A DNA stretch of 64,000 bases from Pirellulales bacterium (GTDB lineage: Bacteria; Planctomycetota; Planctomycetia; Pirellulales; UBA1268), in contig JBAVTF010000085.1 in NCBI GenBank assembly GCA_049695995.1, positions 2,205 through 66,204 of the forward strand, read 5' to 3'. How positions within the stretch are numbered: position 1 is the stretch's first letter; the number at the start of each line of letters is the position of its first letter. This document shows positions 1 through 63,494 of the stretch, piece after piece. The notes below the pieces were generated by a model. That model saw nothing but the letters and a program-made list of their open reading frames with translations, did no database searches and was not told the DNA's origin. Position numbers and translations under genes: made by a program.

Positions 1-1428
1 GGCCCGCACCGTACCGGACGTGGCATCGGAGCCCTTGGCAGGATCGACATGATCGAGTCTCGAGGCGCCCCAGCCCTCCTCGACCTTCTTCGAGGCGTCG
101 GCTGGACGGTCGCTGAACGTCTTCACGGGGCCAGACTCAGTGGCGGAGATGGCCGGAGCTGGGGCCGATGTCGGACGCGACACGGCGGCCGGAGCGGCGG
201 CCGGAGCCGCCGGGATCGGATTGCCACATGAGTCGAGCGGCACCTTCGTGACCACCGTCCGCGGCATCCGCACCGTGTACGTGTAGGGCGTCCGCTTCTC
301 GACGACCCGCGGCACCTGCATCGTCCGCTCCTCGGTGACGTACTTCATCACCTGCACCTGCACCGGCTCGACCTTCTCCTCGGTGACGTACTTCATCACC
401 TGCATCTGCACCTGGCGAACCTGCTCCTCGGGCACCATCCGGCAGACAGTGACGGGAACCTTGTTCTCGACCCTCTCGACCACCTTGCGGACGGTCTGCA
501 CGGGCACCTGACGCGTCGCCGTCTCGGCGACCATCTTCATGGTCTGCACGGGCACCTGCTGGACGACCTGCTCATCGACGTAGCGGACCGTCTGCACTGG
601 CACCTTCTGCGTGACCACACGGTTGACGTAGGTCGTCTCCGGAACCTGCACCGGCGTGTAGGTGGGCTGGTAGACGCGGTTCACCTGATTGACGACCGCA
701 CCGGGATTCATCTGCCACACCCAGCCACCCCGCTGCATCACGGCGAGGCCCGTGTAGGGGTCGATCGCATAGCTCGCGGGAACCCAGCCGAGCGACGTCG
801 TGCCCGGCGTGACGACGGGCGTGACGGTGTCAACAGCCTGACTGCCGACCGAGTAGGCAGTCCGCATCTGCGTGACCGGCTCGGTGACGGTGTAAGCCTG
901 CTCCCGCTCGCTCGTCTCGTAGATCGGCTTGCGGACGGTCGAGACCTGCTGCTGCACCACGGTCTCGTACACCGGCTTCATCACCGTGTACTGCTCCTCG
1001 CGGGTGGCCGTCTCGACCACGTCGCGGGTGACGTCGTAGCTGCGGTCTTGGATCTGCGTTTCGTACACCGGCTTCATCACCGTGGTCCGCTCCTCGCGGG
1101 TCTGGGTCTCCCACACGGGACGCTGCACGGTGTAGCGACGCTCCTGCGTCTGCGTTTCCCAGACCGGCTTTTGCACGGTGTAGGTCTTCGAGTCGTAGAC
1201 GGTCTCCTGGGAGACGCGGTAGGCGGTGACCTGCTGTTCGTCGTAGACGGTCTGGTAGTCCAGCCGGTAGGTCTGCGTGGCGACCGGGGCAGGGGCGACG
1301 ACGGCGTCACCACAGCACTGGGCCCGCGCGATCCGCATGGCGTGATCCTGCGGGGCGACAAGGAGGACAATGCACGCCAGCGACAGCAGGCGGCGGGAGG
1401 CGTTCGAACGGCGGCCGAACGGGGTCAT
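1..1428 (-). CDS. YTV-repeat secreted/cell-envelope protein (partial; 3' end runs off the window; absent from the ORF track)
   Basis: My own minus-strand translation from the ATG at 1428 (AGGAG 7 nt upstream) stays open to base 1. It reads MTPFGRRSNASRRLLSLACIVLLVAP (signal-like), then repeated units KTYTVQKPVWETQTQERRYTVQRPVWETQTREE...QYTVMKPVYET, then VPVQTV units. This matches the planctomycete YTV repeat family. A 48-nt tandem DNA repeat lies at 328-356/376-404. Confidence 0.8.
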   Translation of the reverse strand, partial: MTPFGRRSNASRRLLSLACIVLLVAPQDHAMRIARAQCCGDAVVAPAPVATQTYRLDYQTVYDEQQVTAYRVSQETVYDSKTYTVQKPVWETQTQERRYTVQRPVWETQTREERTTVMKPVYETQIQDRSYDVTRDVVETATREEQYTVMKPVYETVVQQQVSTVRKPIYETSEREQAYTVTEPVTQMRTAYSVGSQAVDTVTPVVTPGTTSLGWVPASYAIDPYTGLAVMQRGGWVWQMNPGAVVNQVNRVYQPTYTPVQVPETTYVNRVVTQKVPVQTVRYVDEQVVQQVPVQTMKMVAETATRQVPVQTVRKVVERVENKVPVTVCRMVPEEQVRQVQMQVMKYVTEEKVEPVQVQVMKYVTEERTMQVPRVVEKRTPYTYTVRMPRTVVTKVPLDSCGNPIPAAPAAAPAAVSRPTSAPAPAISATESGPVKTFSDRPADASKKVEEGWGASRLDHVDPAKGSDATSGTVRA

Positions 1429-1585
1429 GAATTGGCTCCTGAAAAGACCCTTGGAGACTAATCCGATGTACGCAGGCTTCAACCGAAAGGTTGAGAAAAA
1501 AACCGTATTTTTTCCCGAAAAATGGGCCCCCGTTCCTCACGAACGGCGCAACCCGTCCATCTTACGGGGGCAGGGAAGCGGCATC

Positions 1586-1647: not shown

Positions 1648-2169
1648 CTACCCCTTGCGCTCGAGGAGGCGGCGGCTGCGGGGGTCGAGGGCGGCGATGC
1701 TCGGGATCGCGTATCGCATGCCGTAGCTGTCGGTCACGAATGCGCTGCCGTCGGGCTGCGTGACGAAGTCGTCGGCGTGGGCCACCTTGAACCGATGCGG
1801 GCCGCGGTCAGTGACCACGGTCCACTCGGCGGGCTCTCCATCGGACACCGCCTCGATCCGCTCGATCCGCGGCAGGAACTCCCGCTGGGCAAGCTCCGTT
1901 TCGAGGATGGTGCGAAGCGGGGCGGCGATGGCGGAGAGTGACTCGACCCACGCCAGCTCACCGCCGTTGGCTGCGACGATCGCAGCCGGACCGGCTGGGT
2001 CGGATACGGGAAAGGCGCGGAGCACATCAACGTTGGCGTGCCGCCGGCCCTGGGCATCGACGAAGTCGAGCCGGCCGTGGGCATGCCGCTCCAGCCGCCA
2101 GCCTTCGGGGGATATGCCGGTCTGGGGCGCCGTGTCAGAGGGCGGCGTGTGGGCATTCGCTTGGTGCAT
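1648..2169 (-). CDS. DUF1854-family protein (cyanophycin-locus associated)
   Basis: This is a 173-aa ORF with an ATG at 2169. It lies 32 nt downstream of the ABC exporter in the same orientation. The sequence (LDFVDAQGRRH...LRAFP...LPRIERI...WTVVTDRG...HRFKV...DSYGMRY.IP) fits my recollection of DUF1854, which typically follows this ABC transporter type. Confidence 0.7.
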   Translation of the reverse strand: MHQANAHTPPSDTAPQTGISPEGWRLERHAHGRLDFVDAQGRRHANVDVLRAFPVSDPAGPAAIVAANGGELAWVESLSAIAAPLRTILETELAQREFLPRIERIEAVSDGEPAEWTVVTDRGPHRFKVAHADDFVTQPDGSAFVTDSYGMRYAIPSIAALDPRSRRLLERKG

Positions 2170-2201
2170 GGTGTGTCGGGCTCGGGAACGGTGGTGCGAG
2201 G

Positions 2202-4514
2202 TCAGATGCCCGCCGCCGTCTCGCTCTCTTCCATTTGTGCCCGGTAGAGCCGGGCATAGGCTCCGTCGAGGGCGAGCAACTCGTCGTGCGTGCCCATCTC
2301 GATGATGCGGCCGGCGTCGAGTACCACGAGCCGGTTGGCCCGGCGCAGCGTCGACAATCGATGGGCGATCGCGATCGTGGTGCGGCCTGTCACGAGCCGG
2401 TCGATCGCGGCCTGGATGATCGCCTCGGTTTCGGCATCGACGCTCGACGTGGCCTCGTCGAGGATCAGGATCCGCGGGTCGACGAGCAGGGCGCGGGCGA
2501 TCGAGAGCCGCTGGCGTTCACCCCCGGAGAGCGAGCCACCCCGCTCGCCAACGCGAGAGTCGTAGGCCAGCGGCTGCGCGAGGATGAAGTCGTGGGCGCC
2601 GGCGGCCCGGGCCGCCTCCACGATCTTTTCGCGCGGGGCGTCGGGCCGGCCGTAGGCGATGTTCTCTGCGATCGTGCCGAAGAAGAGAAAGGGCTCCTGG
2701 AGCACGCAGCCGAGGTTGTGGCGATAGTCGGCGATCGCCAGGTCGCGGAGGTCGATGCCGTCCACCTTGATCGAGCCGCTCGACGGGTCATAGAACCGAC
2801 AGACCAGGTTGGCGAGCGTCGACTTGCCGGAGCCGCTCGTGCCGACGAGGCCGATCATCTCGCCCGGCTCGATCACGAGGTCGATGCCGTGGAGCACCTC
2901 CCGTGCGCCGTAGCGGAAGTGCACGCCGGAGATCTGAATCCGGCCCTCGATGCGGCCCTCGCCCCGCCCCGGCTTCACGGGGTGCGCGGCCTCCGCGACG
3001 GACGGCGTGCAGTCGAGGATCTCGAAGATCCGCTGCGCGCCGGCCGCGGCCCGCTGTGTTGCCGGCACCATGCGGATCATCGACTCCACGCGACCGTAGA
3101 ACCGGGCGATATAGGCGAGGAACGCCGTGAGTCCACCCACCGTCACGCCGCCACCGAACACGAGCCAGGCGCCCGCGGCCCACACGCACAAGAGGCCAAG
3201 CTCGTTGAAGAGCGTCACGAGCGGACCGCAGAACGACCAGACCACGTTGACGCGGTCGTTGGCATCGAGCACACGGTCGTTGGCGGCGACGAAACGGTCG
3301 ATCTCCCGCGACTCCTGGGCGAACGCCTTGACCACGCGGATCCCGGGAATCGTGTCGGCCAACACGCTCGTCATGTCGCCCCAGGCCACGCTCGCCCGGC
3401 CGAAGCCGCGCCGAAGCCGCTCACGGACGGCGTAGACGAGCCAGACCACGAACGGGAAGGGCACGAGCGTGAGCAGGGCCAGTCGGGGATTGAGCCAAAT
3501 CAGCACGCCCACGGTGAGCACCATCAGCATCACGTTCGAGGCGAACTCGATCAGGTTGACCGACAGGAAAATATTGATGCGGTCCGTGTCGCTGCCCACG
3601 CGGGAGATCAGGTCGCCGGTGCGGCGGCCCTGGAAGAAATCGAGCGACAGCCGCTGGATATGCGCGTAGGTCTGCACGCGGAGCCCGGCGGCGATCCGCT
3701 CGCTCACCCAGGCGAGTGTCCACGTCTGGGCCCAGGCCAGGAGCCAGGCGATGAGGGCCGCAGCGGTGAGGCCGCCGAGATACCACCACACGGCCGAGAA
3801 CGGCACCTGCTCCCCCGCCTGCTTCGGGATCAGCACCTTGTCGACCAGCGGCATCGTGAGATAGGGGGGCACGAGCGCGGCCGACGTGCTGGCCAGCGAG
3901 AGCGCGATGCCGAGCAGGGCCATGCGCCAGTGCGGCATGGCAAAGCCGATCAGCCGCGCGAGCGCCCGCCATGATGCGAGGCCGCCGCTCGGCAAGGGGC
4001 CGTCGTCGTCGCCGCGGCCACGGGCCGGCGCGACCGCTGCGGATTCGCCGGCGTCGTCGGCCGCGACAGGTGGTGCTGCCGATGGCGCGGTCGCGCCGCC
4101 ACGAGCCTCGAACCGGGCATCGAAGGCATCCTCGAGCGCGTGCACGCCCTTCGCCTTGGCGGGCGTGAACAGCCAGCGGGCGATCACGCGGCCTTGCTCG
4201 GAGAGTTCGATCCGGCCGACTGCCGACCGGAGATAGACGTCGATCCGCGTGCCATCGCCGAGGGGCCACGAACGCGGGCCGGGAGTCTCGAGAGCGGCCA
4301 CGTCCGCGGAGGCGGGGGCATCGGCGACAAGCCGGCGATCCGTGAGGGCGATCCAGCCATCGGCAAATCGCATCCGGCCATCGAGGTCGAACCGGCAGGT
4401 AGCCAGCAGTTGCTCGCCCGGCTGGAGCGGGGCTCGATCGCCCCATGGCAGGCCGGCGTTCCGGCGGGGCGAGTCCCCTGGGGGGGAGTCTGCGGAAAGG
4501 GCTGGGGCTGCCAT
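2202..4514 (-). CDS. ABC exporter, fused TMD-NBD with an N-terminal ~200-aa PH-like extension
   Basis: Walker A is GTSGSGKST, the signature is LSGGERQR and Walker B is ILILDEATS. Six TM segments precede the NBD. The N-terminal domain contains GWIALTDRRLV (bacterial PH-like). The ATG at 4514 is preferred over the TTG at 4535. Confidence 0.85.
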   Translation of the reverse strand: MAAPALSADSPPGDSPRRNAGLPWGDRAPLQPGEQLLATCRFDLDGRMRFADGWIALTDRRLVADAPASADVAALETPGPRSWPLGDGTRIDVYLRSAVGRIELSEQGRVIARWLFTPAKAKGVHALEDAFDARFEARGGATAPSAAPPVAADDAGESAAVAPARGRGDDDGPLPSGGLASWRALARLIGFAMPHWRMALLGIALSLASTSAALVPPYLTMPLVDKVLIPKQAGEQVPFSAVWWYLGGLTAAALIAWLLAWAQTWTLAWVSERIAAGLRVQTYAHIQRLSLDFFQGRRTGDLISRVGSDTDRINIFLSVNLIEFASNVMLMVLTVGVLIWLNPRLALLTLVPFPFVVWLVYAVRERLRRGFGRASVAWGDMTSVLADTIPGIRVVKAFAQESREIDRFVAANDRVLDANDRVNVVWSFCGPLVTLFNELGLLCVWAAGAWLVFGGGVTVGGLTAFLAYIARFYGRVESMIRMVPATQRAAAGAQRIFEILDCTPSVAEAAHPVKPGRGEGRIEGRIQISGVHFRYGAREVLHGIDLVIEPGEMIGLVGTSGSGKSTLANLVCRFYDPSSGSIKVDGIDLRDLAIADYRHNLGCVLQEPFLFFGTIAENIAYGRPDAPREKIVEAARAAGAHDFILAQPLAYDSRVGERGGSLSGGERQRLSIARALLVDPRILILDEATSSVDAETEAIIQAAIDRLVTGRTTIAIAHRLSTLRRANRLVVLDAGRIIEMGTHDELLALDGAYARLYRAQMEESETAAGI

Positions 4515-4575
4515 GAAATCCGTTGTTTCTCGCAAAAAATGGGACTAATGAACCGCGAAGCCCGATTGGAAGGGC

Positions 4576-4687
4576 AGTCAGGCCGCGGGGCACAGAAAGT
4601 TGCGTGGCTTTCCGAAGATACCTAGATTAACGTGGTTCGAACGTTCATCATTCCGCCGGTTCGACTTCCGAGCCACGCGGCCTGACT
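4576..4687. promoter_or_regulatory. 112-nt structured element closed by a 12-bp inverted repeat, in the cphA/ABC divergent leader
   Basis: AGTCAGGCCGCG (4576-4587) pairs with CGCGGCCTGACT (4676-4687). Inner pairs are GTGGCT/AGCCAC. Two mutually exclusive hairpins are possible (TCGAAC/GTTCGA versus AACGT/ACGTT). Local GC is lower than the surroundings. The element lies ~60 nt upstream of the ABC exporter ATG. Confidence 0.25.
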
Positions 4688-5394
4688 TGAAAAAAATTCC
4701 CGCCTTCCGCCCCGCCGTGACCGTCAGGTTCGGCTCGTTGTCAATTCTTCAATGATTTTGGCCCGGCTGTTCCGCGCTGCACCCGTTGCTGCACGCCTTT
4801 CCGACCAACAGGCGGATTCGGCAGGTCCCTGGCACGCGGAATGCATCTCTGCGAGGTCGGCGAAAAAAGTTTCGCTTTCGGCGCACGGAAGCGTAAACTT
4901 TTCGTCAGCCGCTGCGAAGTCGAGCACGCGTAAGCGTGATCGATGGATACAGGGGCACGGTTCGATTCATGGTGCCGCGAGAAACGGGCATCGCAAGCGA
5001 ACGCGCGTCCGTGTGGCGTGCGGCGATGCAATCCGATCCTGCGGTGTAGGAATCCTTTCTTCCCATGGCCACTTTGGCCGGTCGATTGCTCGACGGGAAT
5101 CTCTCCCCCACGTTGTGCTCAAACCTGCTGGCGAACCCTTGCGTCGCCGCAGGACTCCCCCCCGCGGCTCCAGACTGTCAGCCGCCGCCCTGACGCTCGC
5201 CCCCGTCAGGTCAGCACGGCTGTCTGCCCTTGCAGACAGGACTGCGCCGACGACGCGTCGCCGCAGCCCCGCTGTCATACGTGCGACCTCCTTTCCAGAC
5301 ACATCTACCGGAATGTCCGGTGGCTGGTGGAGGTGCACACATCCCGATCCCTGCACGCGTCTGCATGGGAGCGAATAGGCACTCAAATCCTTCC

Positions 5395-8061
5395 ATGGAG
5401 ATTCTTTCGCTCAAGGCTCTGCGCGGTCCGAACCAGTGGGCTTCCTTCCCCTGCCTCGAGGCCTGGGTCGATCTCGGCCGCCTCGAGGATTTTCCGTCGC
5501 ATACCCTGCCCGGATTCAACGACCGCATCATGACGTGGCTGCCCACGATGATCGAGCACCGCTGCTCGATCGGCGAGCGGGGGGGCTTCTTCGAACGGCT
5601 CCGCACCGGCACGTGGATGGGCCACGTGCTCGAGCATGTCACGCTCGAGCTTCAGACGCTCGCCGGGACGCCGGTGGGCTACGGCCGGGCCCGTGAAGCC
5701 AACACCCGCGGCGTCTACAAGGTCGTGATTGAATACAAGGAGGAGTCGTTCGCGATCGAGTGCTTCCACACGGCGCATCGGCTGCTGATGGCCGCGATCG
5801 ACGACACCACGTTCGATGTCACGACAGAGGTGAAGCGGCTGCGCAAGATCCTGCTCGATGTGCAGCTCGGCCCCAGCACGCGGTCGATCGTCGAGGCGGC
5901 GGTGGCGCGGGGGATTCCCGTGCGCAGGCTCAACGAGGGCTCGCTCGTGCGGCTCGGCCACGGCGCGAAGCAGCGGCGGATCATGGCGAGCGAGACCGAT
6001 GCCACCGGCGCCATCGGCGAGTCGATCGCCCAGGACAAGGAGCTGACGCGGGCGCTGCTCGCCGAGTCGGGAATTCCAGTGCCCGAAGGACGGCCGGTGA
6101 ACGATGCGGCCGATGCCTGGCGGGTGGCGGCGGAGATCGGCACGCCCGTCGTCGTGAAGCCGCGGTATGGCAACCAAGGCCGCGGCGTATCGGTGAATCT
6201 CTCCGGGCAGGCCGAGGTCGAGAAGGCCTGGCAGATCGCCCGCGACGAGGATTCATCGGTCGTGGTCGAGCGGTTCGTGGCCGGCGACGATTACCGGTTG
6301 CTCGTGGTCGGCGGCAAGATGGTGGCCGCGGCCCGACGGTATCGCCCGGCGGTCGTCGGCAATGGGGCGTCGACGGTCCGGCAACTCGTCGATGCCGTGA
6401 ACGAGGACCCGCGGCGGTGTGGCGACCACGCCGACGTGCTCTCGCCGATTCCGATCGACGAGGTGGCTCTGGCCGTGCTCGCCGAGCAGGGACTCATGCC
6501 GGAGAGCGTGCCCGCTGCCGAGCGGGTGGTGTTCCTGCGGCAAAATGCGAATCTCAGCACGGGCGGCACGGCGGAAGACGTGACAGATGCCGTACATCCG
6601 GAGGTGGCCGCGCGGGCCGTCGAGGCGGCGCGGATCGTCGGCCTCGACGTGGCCGGCATCGACATCGTGACCACCGACATCTCGCAGACGCTCGAGTCGC
6701 AGCGCGGCGCGGTGATCGAGGTCAACGCAGCCCCCGGCCTGCGGATGCACCTCCAGCCCACTGTGGGCACACCTCGCGAGGTGGGCCGCGCAATCATCGA
6801 CGCGATGTTTCCCGAGGGTGAGACCGGGCGGATTCCCACCGCCGCGGTCACGGGCACGAACGGCAAGACGACCGTGGTACGACTCCTGTCGCACATCTCG
6901 GCCACCGGGGGCGCGACCGTGGGCACGACCTGTACCGAGGGCGTGTGGATCGGTGGCCGCCAGATCGATGCCGGCGACTGTAGTGGACCGCAGAGCGCCC
7001 GCCGCGTGCTCGCCAATCCGACGGTGACAACGGCGGTACTCGAGACCGCACGAGGCGGCATCCTCCGCGAGGGCTGTGGCTTCGATCGCTGCGACGTGGC
7101 GGTGGTCACCAACATCGGCAAGGGAGATCATCTCGGCATCGGTGAGATCGACACGCCGGAGAAGCTGGCCTGGGTGAAGGGGGCGATCGTCGCGGCCGTG
7201 CGGCCCGGCGGCGCCGCCGTGCTCAATGCCGCCGACCCGCTCGTCGTCGACATGAAAAAATGGTGCAAGGGCGAAGTTGTCTACTTCGCGCTCGACCCGG
7301 CCAACCCACTCGTCGTGGAGCATCTCGCCGCAGGCGGCCGCGCGGCCACCATTCGCGAGGGCTGGATCGTGCTCTGCGACGGCCCTCGTGAGACGCGTCT
7401 TGCGCAGCTCGATAAGGTACCGCTGGTGCACAAGGGCCTGGTGCCATTCCAGGTGGAGAACGCGCTGGCGAGCGCCGCCGCCGCCTGGCGGCTCGGTGTG
7501 CCGCTGGAGCTCGTGCGCATCGGTCTGGAGACGTTCGCGAGCAATGCCGACGGTTCGCCCGGCCGGTTCAATCTGCTCGATCTCGAGGGCGTGTCGATCG
7601 TAGTCGACTACGGCCACAACGTGCCCTCGCTCGAGCAGATCTGCCGCGTGATCCGTGGGCTGCCGCACGGCCGCCGGATCGCGGTCTATTCCGCAGCCGG
7701 CGACCGTCGCGACGACGACATGCTCGAACAAGGCCGCCTCCTGGGCTCTGAGTTCGACCGTGTGGTCGTCTACGAGGATGCCTACATCCGTGGCCGTCAG
7801 CCGGGCGACATCACGCGGCTCATCGGGCAGGGCGTCGCCGCTGCGACCACCCCGCGGGCCACGGCCGCCGAATCCGGAGGCAACTGGTGCCAGTCGGTGC
7901 AGCTCGTGCTGGAGGCGGCCCGGCCGGGCGACCTCGTGCTCGTTCAGGCCGATGTCGCCGAGGAGGCGTTGCCGTGGCTCGTGGAGAAGTACGGCAGCCG
8001 GCTGCGGGAAACGACGCTCGACGAGATGGCCGCGACGGTCGTCGCCCGCCGGCTGGCGTAG
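5395..8061 (+). CDS. cphA: Cyanophycin synthetase
   Basis: The N-terminus is MEILSLKALRGPNQWASFP. An ATP-grasp block reads VVVKPRYGNQGRGV and a Mur-ligase-like P-loop reads VTGTNGKTT. Length is 888 aa from the ATG at 5395; the longer ORF-track start at 5230 adds non-homologous residues. Confidence 0.9.
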   Translation: MEILSLKALRGPNQWASFPCLEAWVDLGRLEDFPSHTLPGFNDRIMTWLPTMIEHRCSIGERGGFFERLRTGTWMGHVLEHVTLELQTLAGTPVGYGRAREANTRGVYKVVIEYKEESFAIECFHTAHRLLMAAIDDTTFDVTTEVKRLRKILLDVQLGPSTRSIVEAAVARGIPVRRLNEGSLVRLGHGAKQRRIMASETDATGAIGESIAQDKELTRALLAESGIPVPEGRPVNDAADAWRVAAEIGTPVVVKPRYGNQGRGVSVNLSGQAEVEKAWQIARDEDSSVVVERFVAGDDYRLLVVGGKMVAAARRYRPAVVGNGASTVRQLVDAVNEDPRRCGDHADVLSPIPIDEVALAVLAEQGLMPESVPAAERVVFLRQNANLSTGGTAEDVTDAVHPEVAARAVEAARIVGLDVAGIDIVTTDISQTLESQRGAVIEVNAAPGLRMHLQPTVGTPREVGRAIIDAMFPEGETGRIPTAAVTGTNGKTTVVRLLSHISATGGATVGTTCTEGVWIGGRQIDAGDCSGPQSARRVLANPTVTTAVLETARGGILREGCGFDRCDVAVVTNIGKGDHLGIGEIDTPEKLAWVKGAIVAAVRPGGAAVLNAADPLVVDMKKWCKGEVVYFALDPANPLVVEHLAAGGRAATIREGWIVLCDGPRETRLAQLDKVPLVHKGLVPFQVENALASAAAAWRLGVPLELVRIGLETFASNADGSPGRFNLLDLEGVSIVVDYGHNVPSLEQICRVIRGLPHGRRIAVYSAAGDRRDDDMLEQGRLLGSEFDRVVVYEDAYIRGRQPGDITRLIGQGVAAATTPRATAAESGGNWCQSVQLVLEAARPGDLVLVQADVAEEALPWLVEKYGSRLRETTLDEMAATVVARRLA

Positions 8062-8116: not shown

Positions 8117-9184
8117 CTACTTCAGCCCCGGGCGGCGGTCGAGCGCGCCGCGGACGCCGAGCTGCTCGGGATGCCGGGCGATCTTGTCGGTGAACACCCG
8201 GACGTCGTCTACGATCGGCCGGAGTTCCTTCGTGAGGTTGTTCACGTTGGCGGCTGCCTGGGCGAGGTCGTCATAGACCTTCGGGTCGCGGACGAGCTTG
8301 CCGAGCGTGCCCTCCGACTCGTTGAGCGCACGGGTGAAGAAGACGGCCTGCTGGAGCACCTCGTCGAGCCGGCCGATCGTCTTGTCGACCTGGGCCACCA
8401 TCCCCTCGCCCCGCTCGCCGAGCGGGCGGGTGAGCCCCTCGAGGTTCCGCAGGTTGCGATCGGCCGTGTCCACCGTCGTGCCGATGCCCTGCACGGTGGT
8501 GCGGAGGTCATTCATCACCTCCGGCAGACCTTTGAGCGTCTCCTTCAGATTCGCTCGGGCGTTGGCGTCGCCCATCACGTCGTTGATGTTGTCCATCGCC
8601 AGGCTGAAGGCGTCGAGTGCCTTCTCCGTCTTCGCCACCATCTTGGCGAACGTGTCGTCTTCGCCGAGCAGGAGCCGATCGAGGTTGGCCGAGAGCTTCG
8701 TCACCGACTCGCTCGCCTGCGTCAGCGATTCCAGTGCCGAGCCGAGCTTCGGCTCCAGCGTGGCGAAGACCTCGAAGGGATCGCGGGAGACTGCCCCCAC
8801 GAGCACCTCCTCTGGAGCGATCCGCTGCCGCGGCGGCACGACCCGGCCTGGAACGAGTTGGATCTCGGCGTCGCCGAGCAGCGTCGTGGCGATCCGCGGC
8901 TGCTCGTCTTTGTAGATCGGCACGTAGGAGTCGATATCGGCCACGACGCTCACGCCCCCCTTTTCGTCGAGCTCCACGTCGGCCACCCGGCCGACGAGAA
9001 TCCCGTTCTTCCGCACGGGCGTGCCGTTCGACACGCCACGGGCGTCGGCGAAACTCATCTTGAGCGGATAGGTCGCCTGAACGAGCGAAGGCAGGTCGCC
9101 GAAGAGCACGATCAGGATGCCGGCGATGATGGCCGTCGCCAGCACAACCACACCCACGCGAAACTGCATCATGCGGTCGTTCAC
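8117..9184 (-). CDS. mlaD: MCE/MlaD-family substrate-binding protein
   Basis: An N-terminal TM segment (VGVVVLATAIIAGILIVLFG) is followed by an MCE-like domain and a long helical C-terminus. The GTG start overlaps the upstream ATPase stop (GTGA). It is the third gene of a permease-ATPase-MCE operon. Confidence 0.75.
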   Translation of the reverse strand: MNDRMMQFRVGVVVLATAIIAGILIVLFGDLPSLVQATYPLKMSFADARGVSNGTPVRKNGILVGRVADVELDEKGGVSVVADIDSYVPIYKDEQPRIATTLLGDAEIQLVPGRVVPPRQRIAPEEVLVGAVSRDPFEVFATLEPKLGSALESLTQASESVTKLSANLDRLLLGEDDTFAKMVAKTEKALDAFSLAMDNINDVMGDANARANLKETLKGLPEVMNDLRTTVQGIGTTVDTADRNLRNLEGLTRPLGERGEGMVAQVDKTIGRLDEVLQQAVFFTRALNESEGTLGKLVRDPKVYDDLAQAAANVNNLTKELRPIVDDVRVFTDKIARHPEQLGVRGALDRRPGLK

Positions 9185-10101
9185 GTCGTCTCCTCCTCGT
9201 CCTCGGTCGTCTCGTCGTCAGCGGCCGCGGCTGCCGCAGCGGTGCGGCTCCGTTCTGCCAGACCCTGCTCCTCGAGCAATTCGGTCAGCCGGTTGCCGGC
9301 CCGCCCCTCGATGAACTGGCGAACTCGCGGGTCGCGGCTGCGGTCGAGCTCCGCTGGCGTGCCGTCGAACACGACCTGCGGCTCGTCCGGCCGCAGCCGA
9401 AAGAGCGGGTAGAGCATAATGATCCGGTCGGCCACCTTGCGGGCCGTCGACATGTCGTGCGTGACCACCACGCTCGTCACGCGGGGCCGCTCTCGCACCC
9501 GGAGGATCAGCTCGTTGATCACGTCGGTCATGATCGGGTCGAGGCCGGTGGTAGGCTCGTCATAGAGCACGAGCTGGGGATCGAGGGCCAGCGCCCGGGC
9601 GAGGCCGGCCCGCTTCCGCATGCCCCCCGACAGCTGCACCGGCTTCTTCAACAGCACCGTGCGCGGCAGGCCCACCTCGTCGACCAGCGTGCCCACGATC
9701 TCGGTGATCTCCCGCTCGGACAGCCGCGTGTGCTCACGGAGCGGAAAGGCGATGTTGTCGGCGATCGAGTAGCTGTCGAAGAGGGCGGCCCCCTGGAACA
9801 CGAAGCCGTATTTCGTGCGGAGGTGGGCGAGCTGGCGGTCGTTCATTCGCGACAGCGACCGCCCCTCGAAGGCGACATCGCCCGCGGTCGGCCGCACGAG
9901 GCCGATCATCGTCTTGAGAAGCACCGTCTTGCCGCAGCCGCTCTCCCCGAGCACGACGAGCGTCTGCCCGGCATCCAGGTCGAGCGAGATATCGCGGAGC
10001 ACCTCTTGGCTGCCGAACCGCACGCCGAGCCCTTCGACCCGCAGGACGGGCGGGTCGGCCTCGGCACTGGCTCGGGAGGTGGCGGGGGCGGCGGCAGGCA
10101 T
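9181..10101 (-). CDS. mlaF: ABC ATPase, MlaF-like
   Basis: Walker A is GESGCGKT, the signature is LSGGMRKRAGLARAL and Walker B is VLYDEPTTGLDP. The C-terminus has an acidic tail. Confidence 0.85.
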   Translation of the reverse strand: MPAAAPATSRASAEADPPVLRVEGLGVRFGSQEVLRDISLDLDAGQTLVVLGESGCGKTVLLKTMIGLVRPTAGDVAFEGRSLSRMNDRQLAHLRTKYGFVFQGAALFDSYSIADNIAFPLREHTRLSEREITEIVGTLVDEVGLPRTVLLKKPVQLSGGMRKRAGLARALALDPQLVLYDEPTTGLDPIMTDVINELILRVRERPRVTSVVVTHDMSTARKVADRIIMLYPLFRLRPDEPQVVFDGTPAELDRSRDPRVRQFIEGRAGNRLTELLEEQGLAERSRTAAAAAAADDETTEDEEETT

Positions 10102-10119
10102 GGGGTGATGGCTCGCGGG

Positions 10120-10986
10120 TCAGAGCAGCTTGCGGGGACCTTCGGGCCGGAAGAAGTCGTGGAAATTGTTGAGCCCGATCCCGAGGAACAGGTCGAGCAC
10201 GAGGATCAGGACGAACGAATGCACGAAGGCATTGGTGGCTGCCCGTCCCACGCCCTCGGCGCCGGGCGTGCAGTGGAAGCCGTGGTGACAGCTCACCAGG
10301 GCGATGGCCGCGCCGAAGAAAAAGCTTTTGAAGATGCCCATGAGAAAGTCGAAGGCATCGACGTAGGCACGGGAGTTTTCCCAGTAGTGGTGGTAGTCGA
10401 TCCCGAGCAGCACGTGCGAGTAGAGATAGCCGCCGAGCACGCCCATGAAGTCGGCCATCACCGTCAGCGACGGGATGAGCACGAGGCAGCCGAGGAACCG
10501 GGGCACGACGAGATAGTAGATGGGGTTGGCACCCATGCTCTCGAGCGCGTCGATCTGTTCGGTCACCCGCATCGTGCCGAGTTCAGCGGCCATCGCGCTG
10601 CCGACGCGGCCCGCGAGCATCGTCGCCGCGAGCACCGGGCCGAGCTCACGGACGAGCGAGAGGTTGATCACCGAGCCGAGCCGCGTCTGGAGGCCGAGCG
10701 CCTTGAACTGGGCGTAGCTCTGCACGGCGAGCACCATGCCGATGAACAGCCCCGTGAGCGCGACCACCGGCAGCGACATCACGCCGATCTGGTAGAAGCT
10801 CGGCAGAAGCACGTCGCGCCGCTGCCGCCGGGCGAACATCCAGCCGAACGTCTGCAGTGTGAAGATCGCCACGTCGCCGATGCCGGCCACGCTCGACATC
10901 GCGAAGCTGCCAAGGTTGGCGACCATCCGGGCGAGCCAGCCGTTGAGAGCGGGCTGTGGGGTGGCGGGAGTGGGGGAACTGGCCAT
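10120..10986 (-). CDS. mlaE: ABC permease, MlaE-like
   Basis: This is a polytopic membrane protein containing [33 protein letters not shown], the MlaE/YrbE signature region. The ATG at 10986 is preferred; the track start at 11103 adds an Arg/Cys-rich extension. Confidence 0.8.
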
Positions 10987-11118
10987 GGCGAGCGCATCCG
11001 AGAGGGCGTGCGCAGCGGAAGCGCACCACACCCTGCCGGTCGTATCGGCCATGCCGGTCGGGCAGCTTGAGCCGACTGGAACGGCTTTCGGCCACAGCGG
11101 CAATCTGGGCAGGCTGTG

Positions 11119-63102: not shown

Positions 63103-63130
63103 TTGACATCCCCATCGCAACCGTTAAACT
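63103..63130 (+). promoter_or_regulatory. Sigma-70-like promoter for the riboswitch transcript
   Basis: TTGACA (63103-63108), a 16-nt spacer and TAAACT (63125-63130) place the predicted TSS just before the riboswitch 5' end. Confidence 0.35.
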
Positions 63131-63139
63131 CTGCCGACG

Positions 63140-63330
63140 ACTCTGGTGGCCGGGAGGAAGCATCTGCTTTCGTCAGGCAAACAGGGAACTCCGGTGTGAA
63201 TCCGGGACGGCCCCGCCGCTGTGACCAGGCGCCGAGGTCGGCTGTGTCGAGCCATTGCGGTGCCTGTGTGGCCCGCGAGAAGGCATGCAGCCGGCTGAGC
63301 CTGGGAGTCAGAAGACCTACCAGGTGTCAG
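63140..63330 (+). promoter_or_regulatory. Cobalamin (B12) riboswitch
   Basis: The conserved core is readable: AACAGGGAACUCCGGUGUGAAUCCGGGACGGCCCCGCCGCUGUGACC (63180-63226), GCCAUUG...GAGAAGGC (63251-63284) and the B12 box GGGAGUCAGAAGACCUACC (63303-63321). This parallels the E. coli btuB leader blocks AGGGAAUCCAGUGCGAAUCUGG...CGCAGCGGUAAGG, GCCAUUCGGUGGGAAG and AGCCCGAAGACCUGCC. Confidence 0.85.
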
Positions 63331-63494
63331 GAGTCTGCCGGACCGCGAGGGCGGAATGGTGGGCACGGTCGAGTGATCGACCGGTCGCAAGGCACTCAGG
63401 ATCCGCTCCTGCAAGCTCCCGCTTCGCCGACGGTCGCGCCTGCGCCTGCATGCGCGTGCCCGGGCTGGGCGTGCGCGTGCAGGTCGGCAGTGGC

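Follow-up and report, generated by a model that had tools for sequence, protein, structure and literature searches.

In a 64,000-nucleotide stretch of the genome of a freshwater Pirellulales bacterium (contig JBAVTF010000085.1 of assembly GCA_049695995.1, positions 2,205 to 66,204 of the forward strand; hereafter the window), a gene for cyanophycin synthetase, cphA, faces away from a pair of genes encoding an ATP-binding cassette (ABC) exporter and a DUF1854 protein, with a spacer of 880 nt between the two transcription units. This long spacer appears to be a conserved regulatory unit, made up of a promoter-like element of the sigma-54 type, a structured leader RNA and a short upstream open reading frame (uORF), all of which were overlooked when the locus was first described from its letters and open reading frames (ORFs) without database searches (the sequence-only reading). 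The putative promoter, leader RNA and uORF are new in terms of Rfam and the searchable literature, as neither Rfam nor the literature on cyanophycin with riboswitch, sigma-54 or Planctomycetes gave a description of any of them. The association of cphA with ABC and DUF1854 genes is already known and curated, and the trio in the window is the planctomycete version of this known module. We propose that its transporter exports the product of CphA, a reading to which we give a probability of about 45%, and that cphA expression may be governed by events in the leader. The elements of the spacer are as follows.

4597..4632, forward strand: sigma-70-like block TTGCGT-17 nt-TAGATT, pointing to cphA; assigned from conservation only.
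4831..4845, forward strand: sigma-54-type -24/-12 element GGCACG-CGGA-ATGCA, with GG at 4831-4832 and GC at 4843-4844; predicted start near 4856.
4846..5394, forward strand: predicted cphA leader, a structured RNA of ~550 nt with 5' and 3' domains; assigned from covariation.
5065..5193, forward strand: predicted uORF of 42 amino acids (aa), MATLAGRLLDGNLSPTLCSNLLANPCVAAGLPPAAPDCQPPP, with stop codon UGA; assigned from frame conservation.

The spacer (4515-5394) has a GC content of 0.56-0.66, as against 0.68-0.73 in its flanks, has a similar length (764-1194 nt) in 56 of 58 orthologous loci, and is conserved in parts at the level of coding DNA. The sequence-only reading had called it unusually long at ~880 nt, lower in GC, furnished with several hairpins and free of ORFs. 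Its length and composition stand, and the hairpins not only exist but covary; it is not ORF-free, however, containing a mechanical ORF of 208 aa in addition to the 42-codon uORF. Were the 208-aa ORF (4752-5378) to encode a real protein, the conservation of the spacer might simply reflect that protein, and the frame is indeed open in the window, with a 208-aa gene called at the same place on a related contig (L001; related loci are referred to by such numbers throughout). Its GC content by codon position is nevertheless 0.62/0.66/0.61, compared with 0.72/0.48/0.86 for cphA, its conservation across 59 loci has no 3-periodicity, it is open from its start in only 17 of the 59 orthologues and with varying lengths, it has no Pfam or NCBIfam match, and its sequence covaries as RNA helices. 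For its lack of coding bias and periodicity, and because the frame is so seldom open, we rejected this ORF as a gene, and consider the explanation built upon it scarcely credible.

The structure of the leader provides the first line of evidence for a regulatory role. A composite structure was assembled from block-wise RNAalifold local helices together with pair counting; an all-against-all helix finder applied to the leader alignment (A4) was discarded as too noisy. When the composite of 125 pairs is scored on the alignments from which it was derived, 88% of its positions are paired in 42 non-redundant leaders as compared with 38-44% when the partners are slid, compensatory changes are seen at 64 pairs as compared with 32-45, and compensatory cells number 359 as compared with 97-131; none of 500 shuffles reached these values. 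The 3' domain, for which 115 unique sequences are available, behaves similarly, with 88.8% pairing (37-49% when slid) and 368 compensatory cells (55-162 when slid). There is no codon periodicity in the conservation of the leader. Rfam 15 at gathering thresholds recognises a single element in the window, a cobalamin riboswitch at 63127-63338, and when the threshold is relaxed to E<=5 over 4450-5450 it returns two matches at chance level, both to eukaryotic families.

Searching the window and ~1 Mb of related contigs with a profile of the leader gives a single match per locus, which in every case precedes cphA or the operon that substitutes for it (see below), and no match at any other position. 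A pattern representing the 3' domain retrieved 105 metagenome stretches, of which the profile identifies 95 as true leaders and 10 as chance matches, and cphA directly follows 93 of the 95, the other two being too short to tell. Because there is one copy per locus and it lies upstream of cphA, the leader is by all appearances cis-regulatory for cphA and not a mobile or general RNA. Its length is not constant: a subgroup with leaders of ~495 nt (L028, L038, L042, L046, L048, L050, L051 and L059) lacks the variable 5' domain (A4 columns ~93-200), and the helix that follows differs in sequence in this subgroup. As the uORF and the 3' domain are kept in these leaders, the leader is modular. The self-complementary sequence CCAUGG is present in the initiation regions of both the uORF and cphA, and RNAalifold pairs the two with each other; both are invariant, so that this pairing offers no covariation.

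The second line of evidence comes from the uORF, which starts within an invariant CCATGGC (ATG at 5065) and stops within an invariant GCCGCCCTGAC (TGA at 5191-5193). Among 110 unique leaders that contain both anchors there are 12 length classes of the uORF, ranging from 123 to 402 nt, and all are multiples of 3; in 109 of the 110 the frame between the anchors contains no in-frame stop. The chance of obtaining 12 in-frame length classes under unconstrained insertions and deletions is roughly (1/3)^11. Both ends of the peptide are conserved, with MAT[SL]AG[RS]L at the start and [ILV]SPAAPDC[QW]PP(P) immediately before the invariant UGA, whereas the middle varies freely. Start, stop and frame are therefore kept independently of a variable middle, as is the case for regulatory leader peptides. 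We infer translation of the uORF from the maintenance of its frame only, because the middle of the peptide has no 3-periodic conservation. The first hairpin of the 3' domain (CCUGACG...CGUCAGG, 5188-5210) carries this stop codon in its 5' arm.

The third element is situated immediately upstream of the leader. The sequence cTGGCACGcggaATGCA at 4830-4845 has one mismatch to the sigma-54 -24/-12 consensus TGGCACG-N4-TTGCW and the exact GG-N10-GC spacing, and the pattern GGCA[CT][GA]N4NTGC[ATC] occurs exactly once, at the aligned position, in all 59 orthologous spacers, as well as in the four loci with the alternative operon (L070, L074, L077 and L078). In many of the orthologues the same element reads GCACG-NNA-CGTGC, a perfect inverted repeat, and one may ask whether it is instead a palindromic operator (GCACG-N3-CGTGC) for a dimeric factor, with cphA transcribed from the block at 4597-4632, where a conserved TTGnnT-17-TAnnnT arrangement is found 220 nt upstream on the same strand. 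Conservation of the element is asymmetric, however: the 5' half together with the GG and GC is invariant, and the two bases before TGC vary (AA, AC, CC, GA, TA) in at least 11 lineages including that of the window, which breaks the dyad and leaves GG-N10-GC intact. Two further arrangements argue against the operator. In L080 and L083, whose spacers between cphA and the ABC gene are only 417-432 nt and lack both leader and uORF, the element is found 74 nt from the cphA ATG, as would be expected of a promoter from which the leader had been deleted; these two loci constitute natural leader-less controls. In more distant loci (L086 and L090), otherwise unrelated cphA leaders carry near-consensus elements resembling TGGCAC-N5-TTGCA. 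An operator thus appears improbable to us, and the sigma-54 promoter reading of 4831-4845 is preferred because the asymmetric conservation follows the sigma-54 core.

The block at 4597-4632, ~220 nt upstream of the sigma-54-type element, is ~80% identical across the 59 orthologous spacers, with conservation highest at TTG and TAnnnT. A scan of 4400-5500 for the sigma-70 consensus called no promoter, at this block or elsewhere in that interval. It may serve cphA as a second promoter, bind an activator or mark where a short transcript begins.

Taken together, these elements suggest a pathway in which cphA would be transcribed by sigma-54 RNA polymerase from a start ~540 nt upstream, and the transcript would run through the structured leader holding a translated 42-codon uORF that ends Pro-Pro-UGA. 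Translation of the uORF, or stalling at PP-UGA, would most likely remodel the 3' domain, as the first hairpin of this domain overlaps the uORF stop codon. The remodelled 3' domain would then decide whether cphA is read through or initiated at its ATG, which would amount to control of the attenuation or arrest-peptide type.

The genes on either side of the spacer are listed below, together with the N-terminal domain of the ABC protein (TMD, transmembrane domain; NBD, nucleotide-binding domain; PH, pleckstrin homology; AF2, AlphaFold2).

1648..2169, reverse strand: DUF1854 protein, 173 aa (Pfam PF08909); predicted cytoplasmic accessory subunit of the ABC exporter.
2202..4514, reverse strand: ABC half-transporter of the exporter type (TMD-NBD), 770 aa (NCBIfam NF052233, ABC_membrane and ABC_tran).
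4095..4427, reverse strand: predicted PH-like cytoplasmic N-domain of the ABC protein, aa ~30-140 (AF2 and Foldseek).
5395..8061, forward strand: cphA, cyanophycin synthetase of the CphA1 type, 888 aa (NCBIfam TIGR02068, PRK14016 and Pfam).

All three ORFs have normal coding bias in a window of ~68% GC, and both the ORFs and their family matches lie where the sequence-only reading had placed the genes. The mechanical ORF of the ABC gene extends to 4535 (777 aa), the gene being taken as 2202-4514; that of cphA begins at 5230, and we place the start at the ATG at 5395 as the family match runs from aa 56. CphA scores 1075.3 bits against TIGR02068 (cutoff 850) and 1200.9 bits against PRK14016 (cutoff 877). 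Its Pfam domains follow the order Cyanophycin_syn N domain (PF18921), RimK/ATP-grasp, Mur_ligase_M (PF08245) and Mur_ligase_C (PF02875), so that the three-domain architecture of N domain, ATP-grasp G domain and Mur-ligase-like M domain is complete, and it aligns over residues 1-815 with the solved CphA1 structure 7wac (E 4e-218) and over residues 1-816 with 7lg5 (E 6e-211). By family, then, the predicted product is a full-length cyanophycin synthetase of the CphA1 type. For the CphA/CphA' homologues of Cupriavidus necator, work cited by Price et al. reports that no cyanophycin was formed (10.1101/072470). In one clade of relatives (L031, L032, L033, L035, L040 and L064) cphA opens with two or three tandem copies of its first codons (MEITSL...), and where the usual ATG would align, L032 and L033 have CTG, so the true start may be one repeat upstream.

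The ABC protein matches NF052233, the family of cyanophycin metabolism-associated ABC transporters, with 1008 bits (cutoff 880) over residues 35-773 of the 777-aa ORF, and its next-best families (MsbA, HlyB and bacteriocin exporters) each score under their own cutoffs. The 173-aa protein matches Pfam DUF1854 (E 1.8e-34; 118.9 bits against a gathering threshold of 26.8) over profile positions 1-129 of 130. The names given to these two proteins from the sequence alone, an ABC exporter and a DUF1854 protein, were thus sound, and the exporter is of the cphA-associated type.

How regularly the pair accompanies cphA was assessed in related genomes. A genome scan with a narrow DUF1854 alignment returned 80 loci, all from Planctomycetota, and contig look-up added 4; the close relatives are all freshwater Pirellulales/Planctomycetota metagenome-assembled genomes, recovered from Lake Mendota and similar waters, and in one of the closest (JAPOJV01 'bin72', contig L005) CphA, the ABC protein and DUF1854 are 91-97% identical to their counterparts in the window. 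In 58 of the 62 loci with enough upstream sequence cphA is divergent from ABC-DUF1854, and a four-gene operon takes its place in the other 4. As the scan gave only Planctomycetota, the comparison across phyla rests on 10 single look-ups of distant DUF1854 proteins (35-48% identical), a small sample and not a census, 8 of which, Ideonella and Hydrogenophaga among them, have cphA or cphA and cphA' beside ABC-DUF1854. The recurrence of the pair next to cphA, which the sequence-only reading had stated, is borne out by these counts and agrees with NCBIfam, which names both families (the Ideonella gene carries 'cyanophycin metabolism-associated DUF1854 family protein' in its source annotation), and with Price et al. 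In Acidovorax 3H11 and Cupriavidus basilensis 4G11 the genes for DUF1854, the ABC protein, CphA and CphA' are cofit, and polymer efflux has been proposed (10.1101/072470). A cluster of two cphA genes and an ABC gene without cphB is also found in activated sludge (PMC10687191). That the role of the pair is not experimentally defined, as the sequence-only reading had it, likewise holds: the cofitness phenotypes of Price et al. (10.1101/072470) are the only functional data that we found, and a search of the literature on cyanophycin and exporters gave nothing on the mechanism of a cyanophycin-associated ABC transporter.

The ABC protein has ~190 aa preceding ABC_membrane, in which the sequence-only reading had seen a PH-like domain. 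No Pfam family, including the PH and bacterial PH families, matches residues 1-200 at E<=0.01, and a sequence search against the PDB gave nothing for this N-domain or for DUF1854. In the AF2 model, however, aa 30-140 are predicted with high confidence (predicted local distance difference test, pLDDT, >90) as seven strands (36-116) and a C-terminal helix (118-139), followed by a disordered linker of ~40 aa before the first transmembrane helix. The alignment behind this model contains 17 sequences only, because a homologue search with the N-domain by itself gave just 16 fragments. The top Foldseek matches in the PDB are exclusively PH/GRAM domains (Brag2, Lam6, FARP2, Exo84, Slm1, AKT and MTMR2), with probabilities of 0.9-1.0 and modest E values of 2e-3 to 5e-2. 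A PH-like N-domain is therefore supported at the level of the predicted fold, and the earlier description was apt.

For DUF1854 the AF2 model (pLDDT 92, from a 62-sequence alignment) shows a pair of beta-rich modules that each end in a helix, and Foldseek finds no significant neighbour in the PDB. Homology between DUF1854 and the N-domain was considered and rejected, the profile-profile probability being 0.3% and a W-x-[VL]-TDR motif being all that they have in common. The DUF1854 protein has no signal peptide, hydrophobic N-terminus or hydrophobic segment, and in other organisms DUF1854 is fused C-terminally to TMD-NBD (proteins P0154, P0216 and P0197); a 2984-aa protein with 12 'DUF1854' stretches (P0194) is a false match, being a Calx-beta autotransporter. 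As the fusions place DUF1854 C-terminal to the NBD, it should work at the cytoplasmic face, and the PH-like domain and DUF1854 both face the cytoplasm, which is where CphA works.

The four loci in which cphA is replaced (L070, L074, L077 and L078) provide further insight into what the module handles. Each has a four-gene operon at the position of cphA (L077:1671-6523(-)) and retains the MlaD flank, the ABC-DUF1854 flank and the sigma-54-type element. L074, L077 and L078 also retain the leader, with a 41-codon uORF ending ...GPP-UGA; in L070 only ~240 nt separate the element from the first gene and the leader profile has no match. The operon encodes a 479-aa ATP-grasp protein (G1), two paralogues of ~410 aa (U2 and U3; 418 and 410 aa, 33% identical to each other) and a 307-aa ATP-grasp protein (G4) that is glutathione-synthetase-like (GshB/RimK-like). 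U2 and U3 have no match in Pfam, NCBIfam or the PDB and no similarity to CphA or to the adjacent ATP-grasp proteins; they may resemble ligases of the glutathionylspermidine-synthase type. Although it faces a ligase operon, the ABC protein of L077 scores 1004.7 bits, above the NF052233 cutoff. It follows that the transporter module can work with a different ligase system, as can the leader in three of the four loci. We found no description in the literature of such a swap of cphA for a ligase operon; it weakens a strict tie of the transporter to the Asp/Arg polymer and favours the export of a ligase-made peptide.

Degradative enzymes were sought with a Pfam-A scan of 46 window ORFs besides the three genes, comprising all large coding-like ORFs and selected ORFs in the gaps. 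None of the 46 matched Peptidase_S51 (CphB/CphE), Asparaginase_2 (IaaA) or AstE_AspA (CphZ), so that the absence of a nearby cyanophycinase or isoaspartyl dipeptidase remarked on in the sequence-only reading holds for the 64-kb window. A plausible function for the trio is that cytoplasmic CphA makes the Asp/Arg polymer, or else a shorter product, that the PH-like domain and DUF1854 would recognise this product or gate the transporter, and that the ABC dimer would export it to the envelope, in place of storage for recycling of the CphB type. It is this proposal that we place at about 45%.

The exported compound might instead be small, such as the beta-Asp-Arg dipeptide, arginine or short primers, with the transporter acting as an overflow valve or feeding neighbouring cells. 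ABCB-type half-transporters commonly move small amphipathic compounds or peptides, the nearest families of the window protein being bacteriocin, TAP and multidrug exporters; the CphA of the window, as a standard CphA1, should yield a polymer that is insoluble, and an OPT oligopeptide transporter and an M20 peptidase are encoded within the same 64 kb, though not adjacently. Two dedicated cytoplasmic recognition domains would, however, be unusual for a simple small-molecule pump, a cyanophycinase that would generate the dipeptide is not seen in the window, and Price et al. favour polymer export on the basis of pleiotropic envelope and motility phenotypes together with cofitness with both synthetases (10.1101/072470). 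Export of small molecules is on this evidence unlikely. Still less likely, in our view, is that ABC-DUF1854 serves as a regulator or scaffold that tethers or senses CphA or nascent cyanophycin and hydrolyses ATP for signalling or granule organisation. PH-like domains are typical modules for tethering to membranes or ligands, DUF1854 has neither an enzymatic signature nor a solved relative, and in L197 a DUF1854 gene lies beside two-component regulators with no ABC gene at all; but the transmembrane and nucleotide-binding domains of the ABC protein are complete and score like those of working exporters, the existence of proteins that join DUF1854 to the NBD speaks for a component of a transport machine, and we know of no precedent for an ABCB-type exporter that acts purely as a scaffold.

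Export of the CphA product thus remains the function that we favour. A broader model, which we offer only tentatively, combines it with the regulatory elements: the leader would be a composite sensor in which an arrest peptide (MAT..PP-UGA) reads an amino-acid or nitrogen signal, arginine or aspartate supply being the obvious candidates, and gates synthesis of the polymerase, and ABC-DUF1854 would be a general exporter of peptides made by ATP-grasp enzymes. Such a combination would explain why cphA could be swapped with retention of the promoter, the transporter and, in three of four loci, the leader.

A number of points weigh against these proposals. Cyanophycin is classically an insoluble cytoplasmic granule, and a cyanophycinase could sit elsewhere in the genome. 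The 173-aa protein scores 140.8 bits against NCBIfam NF052234 (CphA_assoc_prot), below the equivalog cutoff of 150, as does its homologue in L077 (138.7 bits), and source annotations of the family's planctomycete members go no further than the name 'DUF1854 domain-containing protein'. Of the two distant look-ups that lack cphA nearby, L088, a fragmented contig, has the ABC gene but shows no cphA over 10 kb. The other is L197, whose lone DUF1854 gene (L197:8001-8492), 41% identical to that of the window, is located between epimerase and phosphodiesterase genes, downstream of PAS/GAF two-component regulators; neither the 8 kb upstream of it nor the remaining 4.7 kb of the contig contains an ABC gene or cphA. 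With respect to regulation, neither a gene for an enhancer-binding protein nor rpoN was seen in the window, where the only Sigma54_activat match is the AAA module of a Clp ATPase; the helices of the leader were scored on the same alignments that yielded them; and the middle of the uORF is neither conserved nor 3-periodic.

The remainder of the window encodes a YTV-repeat protein, an Mla-like ABC system, the Clp ATPase, thiamine, LpxB and nuo genes, the M20 peptidase, the OPT transporter and DUF1559; YTV and DUF1559 are domains typical of planctomycetes. The YTV-repeat gene (1-1536, reverse strand) lies ~110 nt beyond DUF1854 on the same strand, and this position is kept in most related loci, although in a subgroup (L029, L047, L049, L054, L056 and others) the gene is elsewhere; it is probably not part of the module. 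The MlaD/MlaF/MlaE-like ABC system (8117-11103, reverse strand) is convergent with cphA, but one subgroup of relatives has these three genes on the opposite side, beyond DUF1854, so that the neighbourhood is conserved but rearranged. The cobalamin riboswitch (RF00174, 80.6 bits; 63127-63338, forward strand) is upstream of a DUF1559/SBP_bac_10 gene at the end of the window.

Most non-cyanobacterial cphA genes lack a cyanophycinase partner. The locus adds little to the known association of ABC-DUF1854 with cphA. It does define, at the level of the fold, the two cytoplasmic accessory domains expected to contact the substrate, and the swap of cphA suggests that what such loci share is the export of a peptide made by ligases. 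A cphA-specific leader in abundant freshwater planctomycetes could reveal the signal that switches on cyanophycin synthesis and, if the proposed mechanism is true, the coupling of an arrest peptide to an amino-acid polymerase in bacteria would extend this control logic to a new case.

Comparison with known systems places these features in context. The cphA/cphA'-ABC-DUF1854 cluster of beta-proteobacteria (Acidovorax 3H11 and Cupriavidus basilensis 4G11) contains the same ABC and DUF1854 families, in the same order of ABC followed by DUF1854 and divergent from the synthetase, and likewise has no adjacent cyanophycinase; we saw this divergent arrangement directly in Hydrogenophaga (L087), Ideonella (L085) and L198. 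In contrast to the beta-proteobacterial pair of cphA and cphA', the window has a single cphA, closest to the cyanobacterial CphA1 structures, its DUF1854 protein falls just under the NCBIfam cutoff, and its 880-nt spacer holds the sigma-54-type element, the leader and the uORF. The spacers of the beta-proteobacteria, at 157-166 nt, have none of these. With the cphA1-cphB clusters of cyanobacteria the window shares the CphA1 architecture, at ~50% identity to the solved cyanobacterial enzymes, but the partner of CphA is here an exporter and not a hydrolase, with no cphB/cphE, iaaA or cphZ in 64 kb. Cyanobacteria are not known to possess sigma-54.

The predicted control region is most readily compared with TnaC-tnaAB, SpeFL-speF and the fungal arginine attenuator peptide, in each of which, as here, a short uORF within a long leader has a conserved C-terminal end and stop, and the downstream gene uses amino acids as substrates. 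TnaC, moreover, ends in proline followed by UGA, as does the uORF of the window (PP-UGA). There is no sequence similarity to any of the three, and unlike them the uORF lies inside a far larger covarying RNA of ~550 nt and has a putative promoter of the sigma-54 type. The tandem glnAp1/glnAp2 promoters of enterobacteria, in which a sigma-70 promoter is upstream of a sigma-54 promoter, offer no more than an analogy to the sigma-70-like block situated ~220 nt upstream of the sigma-54-like element at a gene of nitrogen metabolism, notwithstanding that no NtrC-type sites were identified and that no gene for an enhancer-binding protein is found near the window locus.

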